From: a virus
Lineage: Duplodnaviria; Heunggongvirae; Uroviricota; Caudoviricetes
IMG/VR virus record: IMGVR_UViG_2737471849_000009
Reading direction: 5' to 3' (one strand)
Length of the DNA: 28,335 bases
The notes below the pieces were generated by a model, which saw only the letters and a list, made by a program, of their open reading frames with translations, was not told where the DNA came from and did not search any database. Every line of letters starts with the position of its first letter. The stretch's first letter is position 1. Both the position numbers and the translations under genes were made by a program. This document shows, piece after piece, positions 8,855 to 9,749 of this stretch.

Positions 8855-9749
8855 TCTTCTGCTCGATTTTGGACATCCGGTTGCTTATTACCCTGGGCTC
8901 GTTAAATACATGGGAAGTCCGCACGCTGTTATTTTCTTTGGTCAGATTTTTTACTGGCAGGATAAAGCACATGCAGCGGAAGGCGTACATAAAACGCGTG
9001 AAGAGATACAACACGAAACCGGACTTACATTTGAACAACAGGCTGTAGCGCGTAAGCATCTTGTGTCCAGAGGCATTTTGGTTGAAACCAACAAGCGTCT
9101 TGAGCACAAAATGTTCTACCGTATAGATTGTGAGCGCCTTAATGAAATTATCAATGAAAACAATCAGTTTTCCCGAAATGGGGAAACCCGTTTTCGGGAA
9201 ACTGTAAAACCAAATTTCGCGGAGGAGGGAAAGCCTTCACCGCGGACACGGGAAACCCCTCGCCGCGGAGAAGGGAAAACCAATTTCGATCTTACAGAGA
9301 ATACAACAGAGATTACTTCAGAGAATACTACAGAGAGTAAAAACACTATTGGCGCATCCGCTGATGCGTCTGCACCAGCACGTTCTGCCCGACAGGAATA
9401 TTCACCGGAATTTGAACAGGCCTGGCAGGAATATCCCAAACGTGCTGGTGGCAATTCCAAGTCAGCAGCCTTCAAAGCCTGGAAAGCCCGTATCAGGGAG
9501 GGAATAAAACCGGAGACCATGCTTGATGGTGTGAAGCGGTATGCCGCCTGGGTACGTGCTACAGGAAATACCGGCACACAGTTCGTGAAGCAGGCTGCGA
9601 CGTTCTTTGGACCCGATCGTCACTTCGAAGATTACTGGCAACAGCCAGCCGCTCCCGGAGGTGGGCGACAGCGACAGGTCGATGTCCTGGCTGGCCTGGG
9701 AGCCATGTCTGACAAATTCGGTAAATCCAGTGACAAACTGACATTCTGA
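8835..9749 (+). CDS. Replication initiator (lambda O-like architecture) with internal origin repeats
   Basis: 304 aa; two domains separated by a low-complexity linker (NGETRFRETVKPNFAEEGKPSPRTRETPRRGEGKTNF) encoded by iteron-like DNA; sits directly upstream of the DnaC-like and DnaB-like genes. Confidence 0.55.
   Translation: MAMRPSDLLLDFGHPVAYYPGLVKYMGSPHAVIFFGQIFYWQDKAHAAEGVHKTREEIQHETGLTFEQQAVARKHLVSRGILVETNKRLEHKMFYRIDCERLNEIINENNQFSRNGETRFRETVKPNFAEEGKPSPRTRETPRRGEGKTNFDLTENTTEITSENTTESKNTIGASADASAPARSARQEYSPEFEQAWQEYPKRAGGNSKSAAFKAWKARIREGIKPETMLDGVKRYAAWVRATGNTGTQFVKQAATFFGPDRHFEDYWQQPAAPGGGRQRQVDVLAGLGAMSDKFGKSSDKLTF
9165..9350. repeat. Iteron-like GGGAAA(C/G/A) repeats plus AT-rich ACAGAGA repeats (candidate phage origin)
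   Basis: Five direct GGGAAAC-type copies at about 9182, 9196, 9227, 9250 and 9273 with one inverted copy at about 9169, followed by an AT-rich stretch with three ACAGAGA(A/G)TA repeats (9291-9345). Confidence 0.45.

Follow-up and report, generated by a model that had tools for sequence, protein, structure and literature searches.

An origin made of iterons and an AT-rich tract, placed inside the initiator gene, is the textbook arrangement for lambdoid phages. In lambda, the middle of O holds iterons and an AT-rich tract, which together form the origin (PMC7466680). The High-AT-rich tract of lambda is sensitive to unwinding, and the ori95 and ori96 alleles, which come from replication-defective prophage mutants, are in-frame deletions of 12 and 15 bp in that tract; O proteins with these deletions remain able to complement O amber mutants, and the linker-coding DNA of lambda thus functions as DNA (PMC6022878). 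The N-terminal half of lambda O is specific for the repeats and the C-terminal half is specific for the helicase-loading partner (PMC7466680, PMC6022878). Here we describe a locus of this kind in a 28,335-nucleotide stretch of a Caudoviricetes virus (IMG/VR record IMGVR_UViG_2737471849_000009; the whole stretch is called the window below). By analogy with lambda, positions 9169-9341, in the linker-coding middle of the initiator gene, are probably the replication origin of a lambda-like prophage.

Two adjacent repeat arrays make up this segment. Five head-to-tail 23-bp units fill 9181-9295 (starts 9181, 9204, 9227, 9250 and 9273) and have the consensus GGGAAACCCnTTTTCGCGGAnAn (also written GGGAAAnCCnnTTTCGCGG). 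Four 12-bp units with the consensus ACAGAGAnTACn come next.

9169..9201, no strand: perfect 10-bp inverted repeat at the left edge of the array (TTTCCCGAAA at 9169-9178, TTTCGGGAAA at 9192-9201)
9181..9203, + strand: 23-bp unit 1, GGGAAACCCGTTTTCGGGAAACT
9204..9226, + strand: 23-bp unit 2, 5' half degenerate (GTAAAAC), GTAAAACCAAATTTCGCGGAGGA
9227..9249, + strand: 23-bp unit 3, GGGAAAGCCTTCACCGCGGACAC
9250..9272, + strand: 23-bp unit 4, GGGAAACCCCTCGCCGCGGAGAA
9273..9295, + strand: 23-bp unit 5, GGGAAAACCAATTTCGATCTTAC, with its 3' part TTTCGATC invariant in nine orthologues
9288..9291, no strand: GATC (Dam site) where the 23-bp and 12-bp arrays meet, unchanged across nine orthologues (six genera)
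9294..9341, + strand: four 12-bp units (ACAGAGAATACA, ACAGAGATTACT, TCAGAGAATACT and ACAGAGAGTAAA), an AT-rich/A-rich tract of low stability

An earlier note on this DNA had described five direct GGGAAA(C/G/A) repeats plus an inverted copy, and these were found exactly where it placed them: GGGAAAV starts at 9181, 9196, 9227, 9250 and 9273 on the + strand, with a - strand copy at 9168-9174. The 23-bp spacing that it gave for the last three repeats is correct and is better read as five 23-bp units in register, the GGGAAAC at 9196 being the 3' half of unit 1. It had also described three ACAGAGA(A/G)TA repeats in an AT-rich segment. The AT-rich repeats are there, but the count has to be revised to four 12-bp units, since the motif is exact at 9294 and 9330 and has one mismatch at 9306 and at 9318; 7 matches occurred in no shuffle. 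The 10-bp inverted repeat at 9169-9201, which takes in the inverted copy of the earlier note, is kept in orthologues of Klebsiella, Serratia and Pantoea. A GATC at the array boundary occurs in mEp460-type genes as well.

In the 28-kb window, the top-ranked array of Tandem Repeats Finder was the 23-bp one (score 73), with the 12-bp array next (score 67), and the lag-23 self-identity of 0.65 from 9167 is the window maximum among all lags from 7 to 40. Six GGGAAA/TTTCCC words lie inside 120 bp, while elsewhere (outside 8900-9400) the maximum is two per 120 bp; the Poisson probability of such a cluster is 4e-9 per stretch and ~1e-6 over the whole window. The starts of the five 23-bp units are in codon phases 1, 0, 2, 1 and 0. 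The units thus occupy three codon phases and cannot derive from a repeat at the amino-acid level. The 12-bp units are all in codon phase 0. A dyad, (G/C)GAAA-N5-TTTC(G/C), is well formed in units 1 and 5 and partial in unit 2. The region 9280-9345 is at the 98.9th percentile of the least stable 50-bp stretches in the window, and the GC content at 9280-9339 is 0.33-0.35.

Both arrays lie between the two folded domains of the initiator, as judged from an AlphaFold (AF2) model built from 45 homologues. Confidence is given as the predicted local distance difference test score (pLDDT).

8841..9749, + strand: initiator gene, 302 amino acids (ATG at 8841, GGAGG at 8831-8835; orthologues begin MRPSDLL)
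8841..9167, + strand: N-terminal domain, residues 1-109, predicted winged helix (AF2 model, weak fold matches)
9168..9392, + strand: predicted disordered linker, residues 110-184, which holds both arrays (pLDDT 26-33)
9393..9749, + strand: C-terminal helical domain, residues 185-302 (modelled as helical over 185-270; AF2 model)

In the model, the arrays (9169-9341) correspond to residues 110-167 of the 302, and residues 110-184 are disordered, in agreement with the earlier placement of the repeats in the linker-coding part of the gene. Since this linker is predicted to be disordered, the protein would tolerate DNA-level constraints there. The N-domain is modelled over residues 5-109 (pLDDT 65-85) with helices at 53-60 and 64-77 and strands at 80-84 and 91-95, a helix-helix-strand-strand pattern that, if the model is correct, is that of a winged helix. 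A profile match to the winged-helix regulator 2d1h was obtained at E 0.09. We presume that this domain is the repeat-binding module, and that the C-domain is an exchangeable module that recruits helicase-loading proteins.

Homology searches place the protein among phage initiators and separate it from lambda O. It matches PHROG 270, 'replication initiation protein', at 2.9e-66 and PHROG 9773, 'replication initiation O-like', at 1.1e-36. No Pfam or NCBIfam family was matched by the whole protein or by its halves taken separately, for Pfam even at E<=10. The N-domain did not match PF04492 (Phage_rep_O), a family that the same library assigns to lambda O and P22 gp18 at 1e-36 to 1e-38, and homology to the mEp460-type N-domain was not significant. 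Membership of Phage_rep_O is ruled out by the absent PF04492 match together with an hhalign E of 0.27 against lambda O. The gene had been called O-like; this holds for its architecture, but not for sequence similarity to lambda O or Phage_rep_O.

The likeness to lambda is thus one of layout. In the lambda RefSeq record, four iterons lie inside O at 39034, 39054, 39078 and 39101 (spacing 20/24/23 bp), and an A-rich AT tract is next to them. Lambda and the window share an origin position in the middle of the initiator gene, four to five repeats 20-24 bp apart with dyads, and a promoter-distal AT-rich tract. They differ in the repeats, which are unrelated (TCCCTC...GAGGGA in lambda, GGGAAAnCC..TTTCGCG in the window), in the N-domain (Phage_rep_O in lambda but not in the window), in the AT-rich tract (irregular in lambda, a regular 12-bp array in the window) and in the partners (lambda P and host DnaB, as opposed to the phage DnaC-like and DnaB-like proteins of the window). 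One O-like gene can be aligned with lambda along its right flank, and its 12-mers fall exactly at the position of the lambda AT-rich tract. P22 has a rep_origin annotated inside gene 18, with four TCGGTAAAAC repeats 20/24/23 bp apart followed by ACAAAAGACAAT repeats, and like the window it encodes a phage DnaB-like helicase (gene 12) downstream. Unlike the window, P22 has no DnaC-like gene, its gp18 belongs to Phage_rep_O, and its AT-rich repeat is ACAAAAGA rather than ACAGAGA. The earlier comparison with ori-lambda inside O is therefore borne out by the 23-bp spacing, by the order of repeats and AT-rich tract, and by the lambda and P22 annotations.

Nearest in architecture are mEp460, HannyBb, Pantoea AH07, Pseudomonas CF63a, Acinetobacter IME-AB2, Bacillus PM1 and Staphylococcus phage 37. 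In these phages, four to seven family-specific repeats at 22-24 bp are followed by ACAGAGAnTAC 12-mers inside the initiator gene, as in the window; the N-domains, repeats and C-domains (e.g. Phg_2220_C) differ, and no origin is annotated. In HannyBb and mEp460, the gene of the O-like initiator contains five to six GGTCAAAATG repeats as well as 12-mers. The genes annotated downstream encode a Ren-like protein and a DNA methylase, with neither P nor DnaC nor DnaB annotated beside the initiator.

Central in-gene repeats are also a property of RepA_N plasmids and of the SPP1 replisome-organiser gene, where an N-terminal winged helix binds and the C-domain contacts host replication proteins. These systems have no sequence relationship to the window and the fold scores are far from significant, with RepA_N chains (5kbj and 4pt7) at E 0.13-0.16 among many generic winged-helix matches. 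The plasmids RK2 and pPS10 are similar in that the repeats adjoin an AT-rich element of short repeated units, but their origins are intergenic and use DnaA boxes. Four DnaA boxes (TTWTNCACA) were found in the window, a count not above chance, with none within 1 kb upstream of the locus and the closest one at 10320, which led us to reject an iteron-plasmid origin of the DnaA-box type. For the Rep proteins of iteron plasmids, sequence-specific single-strand binding in the DNA unwinding element has been documented (PMC4081077).

We used codon-position tests to determine where selection acts in the initiator gene. Orthologues were gathered by protein similarity only, eleven loci through the N-domain (species-representative genomes) and five through exact protein look-ups. 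The first test used nine genes from Escherichia, Yersinia, Morganella, Serratia, Klebsiella and Pantoea. Values are mean pairwise identities at codon positions 1/2/3.

N-domain, nine orthologues: 0.81/0.88/0.44
23-bp array, nine orthologues: 0.70/0.70/0.69
12-mers, nine orthologues: 0.88/0.77/0.89
next 59 bp, nine orthologues: 0.39/0.57/0.34

The N-domain has an ordinary protein-coding signature and both arrays depart from it. Third positions in both arrays are conserved like first and second positions, from which we conclude that the DNA itself is under selection. Conservation inside the 23-bp units falls on G1, A4, A5, C8, C9 and T12-G18, an 18-bp footprint with variable spacers, which can be written G..AAA.CC..TTTCGCG and is a partial dyad. 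The 12-mers encode T-E-x-T, where x is I, N, T or S and always has an A-n-T codon. Threonine is ACA or ACT and glutamate is GAG, even in Paraburkholderia genes at 60-65% GC. These codon counts include two over-extended motif windows (L129 and L134) and come from related sequences, for which p-values are only indicative. A 137-amino-acid antisense open reading frame (9164-9577, - strand) overlaps both arrays; it is probably not a gene because the conservation of the 23-bp array is without three-base periodicity.

The second test used an independent, protein-selected set of 14 staphylococcal-type initiators (44-100% identity).

N-domain, 14 staphylococcal-type initiators: 0.78/0.86/0.49
repeats, 14 staphylococcal-type initiators: 0.69/0.74/0.74
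12-mers, 14 staphylococcal-type initiators: 0.95/0.90/0.89
C-domain, 14 staphylococcal-type initiators: 0.65/0.74/0.50

The repeats of this set shift in concert, being AACAATGGA throughout one lineage and AAGAATGGA throughout another. Such concerted change is the pattern expected when the specificity of an initiator switches. Further variants of these repeats (L152-L197, gene positions ~313-405) are seen in more distant lineages.

The repeats also travel with the N-domain. Eleven genomes were found with the N-domain alone; identity is 85% in Yersinia and falls to 49-53% in Paraburkholderia and a Burkholderiales genome. In most of these loci, repeated GGGAAA(n)CC stands directly past the N-domain, and in Serratia the GGGAAA copies have the same spacing as in the window (15, 31, 23, 23). 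Three loci (L127-L129) have the variant repeat G(C/A)GAAAGCGCAnTTCG or few copies. Units containing CAGAGA come next in all eleven. Window-type N-domains and repeats are joined to at least six different C-domains, and the downstream partners vary between DnaC-like plus DnaB-like, lambda-P-like, a Toprim-DnaB primase-helicase, DUF968 and DUF1064. Conversely, the C-domain of the window is shared with phiP27 L17 and PhiR49_2 at 93-98% DNA identity, where it stands behind different N-halves; in phiP27 the N-domain is Pfam HTH_36 and the repeats differ (CCnTCAGAATCTGA). As judged from sequence comparison, GGGAAA-type repeats are co-inherited with the N-domain across Gamma- and Betaproteobacteria while the C-domain and partners change. 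The module fits the classical initiator, in which the N-half co-evolves with its sites and the C-half is exchangeable to suit the helicase-loading partner.

One hybrid (L057) has a window-type N-half and GGGAAA repeats fused, just past the 12-mer tract, to a lambda-O-like C-domain of mEp460 type. This IMG/VR contig carries the gene on the reverse strand (5774-6812 of the reversed locus), and by eye the next gene is no DnaC or DnaB homologue. One of the loci with the variant repeat GAAAGCGCAnTTCG (L129, NZ_JBOGCC010000269.1, labelled 'MAG: Clostridium sp.') encodes an N-domain that is 62% identical and has 12-mers; its Clostridium label may reflect mis-binning or a broad host range.

The 12-mer element extends well beyond this phage. 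An exact 23-mer, ACAGAGAATACAACAGAGATTAC, is present in at least 120 viral contigs, a scan that is biased to identical copies, so that conservation is argued here from the protein-selected sets. The 74 different upstream contexts listed comprise about ten unrelated repeat families, and in these contexts the 23-mer is directly past a direct-repeat block. When N-domains were clustered at 70% identity, 14 clusters shared the 12-mers and each had its own repeat, mostly spaced 22-24 bp (single-linkage clustering at 35% identity lumped nearly everything and was not used). A lower-stringency search found 12-mers in initiator genes of Klebsiella, Erwinia, Acinetobacter, Pseudomonas, Vibrio, Bacillus and Staphylococcus phages. 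The core CAGAGAnTAC is kept against host codon preference in phages of Staphylococcus, Bacillus, Acinetobacter, Pseudomonas, Vibrio and Burkholderia, and a low-stability tract abuts the last repeat in every family examined. The query has matches in 1,416 of 5,426 complete E. coli genomes; apart from 101 of them, nearly all match only over a ~40-bp 12-mer core, which is window 9288-9327; in the examples listed, the matches are in genes labelled replication protein O or hypothetical.

A copy of such an element is found on the Bacillus plasmid pBSG3 (NC_014104.1, ~716-897), where ~180 bp show homology to the origin-bearing section of the Bacillus phage PM1 initiator gene (~630-810). The cassette, which lies outside any long reading frame, is made up of CCTACAGGGAAAGAC repeats (three to four copies), three ACAGAGATTACT units and a CGCGCAAAAACACGCGC palindrome, and its homology stops at either end. 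It could be a phage origin that the plasmid has captured. Near-identical 8.4-kb plasmids of B. velezensis carry a cassette of the same type. Short blastn matches to the 12-mer tract were obtained in Nostoc plasmids. By eye, the replication region of 'Xanthomonas phage SU1' (OR842880.1) is closely like that of Staphylococcus phage 37 over ~320 bp, and its host label or provenance may deserve a check. OriJ, the origin of the Rac prophage, had prompted a comparison with ydaU-ydaV of K-12. The link was rejected, as ydaU has neither 12-mers nor comparable repeats.

The 12-mers occur with varying DNA-binding domains and with varying helicase-recruiting domains. That they are conserved in different hosts and with different N- and C-domains suggests a DNA property or a component common to all bacteria. 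We tentatively suggest, at somewhat less than even confidence, that the 12-mer array is a sequence-specific origin signal at the DNA level, e.g. for strand opening and the engagement of a common component such as the replicative helicase, the primase or single-strand binding.

The earlier note had proposed this segment as a candidate origin, and the computational evidence agrees: there is DNA-level conservation, linkage to the N-domain, and spacing and order like those of lambda and P22. A working scheme can be drawn by analogy with lambda. Early rightward transcription would yield the initiator, whose N-terminal winged-helix domain would bind the five 23-bp repeats. The 23-bp spacing, ~2.2 helical turns, could let bound initiators wrap the DNA, and the strain of wrapping might open the adjacent 12-mer tract at 9294-9341. 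The C-domain would then bring in the phage DnaC-like loader and DnaB-like helicase, which are encoded just downstream.

Several observations weigh against an origin that works in this way. Dyad symmetry is poor within 23-bp units 3 and 4. The comparison of the N-domain with lambda O by hhalign was not significant, and the best Foldseek matches of the N-domain, to winged-helix DNA-binding proteins, are weak (best E 0.04, range 0.04-0.2). Several intergenic regions in the window are less stable than the 12-mer tract. A second AT-rich tract at 9110-9180 (97.9th percentile of the least stable 50-bp stretches) lies on the opposite side of the repeats and is an alternative opening side. Finally, no origin is annotated in the record of the near-identical phage Stx1_14040.

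The alternative that survives best concerns the 12-mers. They may be kept mainly as an in-frame recombination joint for swaps of N- and C-halves, in which case any AT-rich DNA could open. The hybrid described above is joined at the tract, and two close relatives on IMG/VR contigs (L039 and L110) have one extra ACAGAGAATACA unit, showing in-frame variation in copy number. The ~1,400 E. coli genomes that match only the ~40-bp stretch would fit a joint, as would the different AT-rich sequence of lambda and P22. However, CAGAGAnTAC is kept against codon preference across distant hosts, between which direct exchange is unlikely, and the 12-mers are retained in the non-coding pBSG3 copy. We consider it rather unlikely that a joint is the main reason for their conservation. 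That the 12-mer tract doubles as an in-frame joint for shuffling initiator halves is observed, and this role and that of a specific signal are not exclusive.

A second alternative is that the 23-bp repeats are initiator sites for autoregulation, copy control or exclusion, with opening and start elsewhere in the phage. In its favour, the window has intergenic DNA of lower stability. However, there is no other repeat cluster of like strength in the 28-kb window, the layout copies that of lambda and P22, where the origin is at such a place, and the adjoining low-stability tract recurs from family to family. We therefore regard this alternative as improbable. It is very improbable that the repeats are a by-product of a low-complexity protein linker with no DNA function, since, while the arrays are in a predicted disordered region and the 12-bp units are in frame and encode T-E-x-T, 23 bp is not a multiple of three and the 23-bp units fall in three codon phases, third positions are conserved in both arrays and again in the staphylococcal-type phages, the 12-mer codons are fixed even in high-GC Paraburkholderia, and the pBSG3 cassette is outside any long reading frame.

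The genes that follow the initiator encode an IstB/DnaC AAA+ domain and a DnaB_C domain in adjacent reading frames. Their NCBIfam matches to DnaC and DnaB are below the equivalog cut-offs and indicate family-level membership, not identity with the host proteins.

9751..10638, + strand: DnaC-like AAA+ helicase loader gene (PF01695 1.4e-15; NCBIfam DnaC 2.2e-39; PHROG 50 5e-83)
10635..12026, + strand: DnaB-like replicative helicase gene (PF03796 5.5e-73; TIGR00665 5e-93; PHROG 19)

The window (1-28335) is a segment of a lambda-like prophage. A CI-like repressor gene (5450-6139, - strand) and a Cro-like gene (6273-6572, + strand) are upstream of the replication genes, a RusA-like gene is at 12277-12651, and the late genes are most like those of phage PhiR49_2. 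The N-domain and the origin together are present in 101 of the 5,426 complete E. coli genomes (~2%). Initiator genes 96-98% identical to that of the window, labelled 'phage replication protein O', are found in Stx1a-, Stx2a- and Stx2d-converting phages. For the best phage matches to 1-25000, the listed features included no Shiga toxin gene. No tRNA genes were found in the window. A search of 8000-10500 against Rfam at a permissive threshold gave two chance-level matches, neither of them on the arrays, and a promoter and terminator scan of 8300-10000 was not above shuffles. Cumulative GC skew tracks gene orientation only and was uninformative on the origin.

An in-gene origin of iterons and an AT-rich tract is already well known, and a specialist would expect one here. 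We found no description of the origin of this module or of the 12-mer element in the literature, although the scope of the search was limited and absence is not proof of novelty. Searches on DNA strings and peptide motifs (ACAGAGAATAC, TEITTE etc.) returned unrelated papers only, and those on staphylococcal phage origins and replisome organisers returned nothing about the 12-mer element. Two papers on the Eru typing of Stx-phage replication regions mention no iterons, origin, DnaC or AT-rich tracts.

Shiga-toxin-converting phages carry the module of initiator, DnaC-like loader and DnaB-like helicase. Toxin gene dosage depends on prophage replication, and the place of the origin and the predicted 23-bp sites would offer a defined point at which to study or block it. 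Of greater interest is a by-product of the analysis, the 12-mer array, which adjoins unrelated, mostly 23-bp-spaced repeats in phages of both Proteobacteria and Firmicutes. Family-specific repeats spaced ~23 bp apart and followed by a shared 12-mer tract form a common grammar of a very large set of putative phage origins. Such a grammar could be used for the automatic annotation of origins and for asking what reads the 12-mer.

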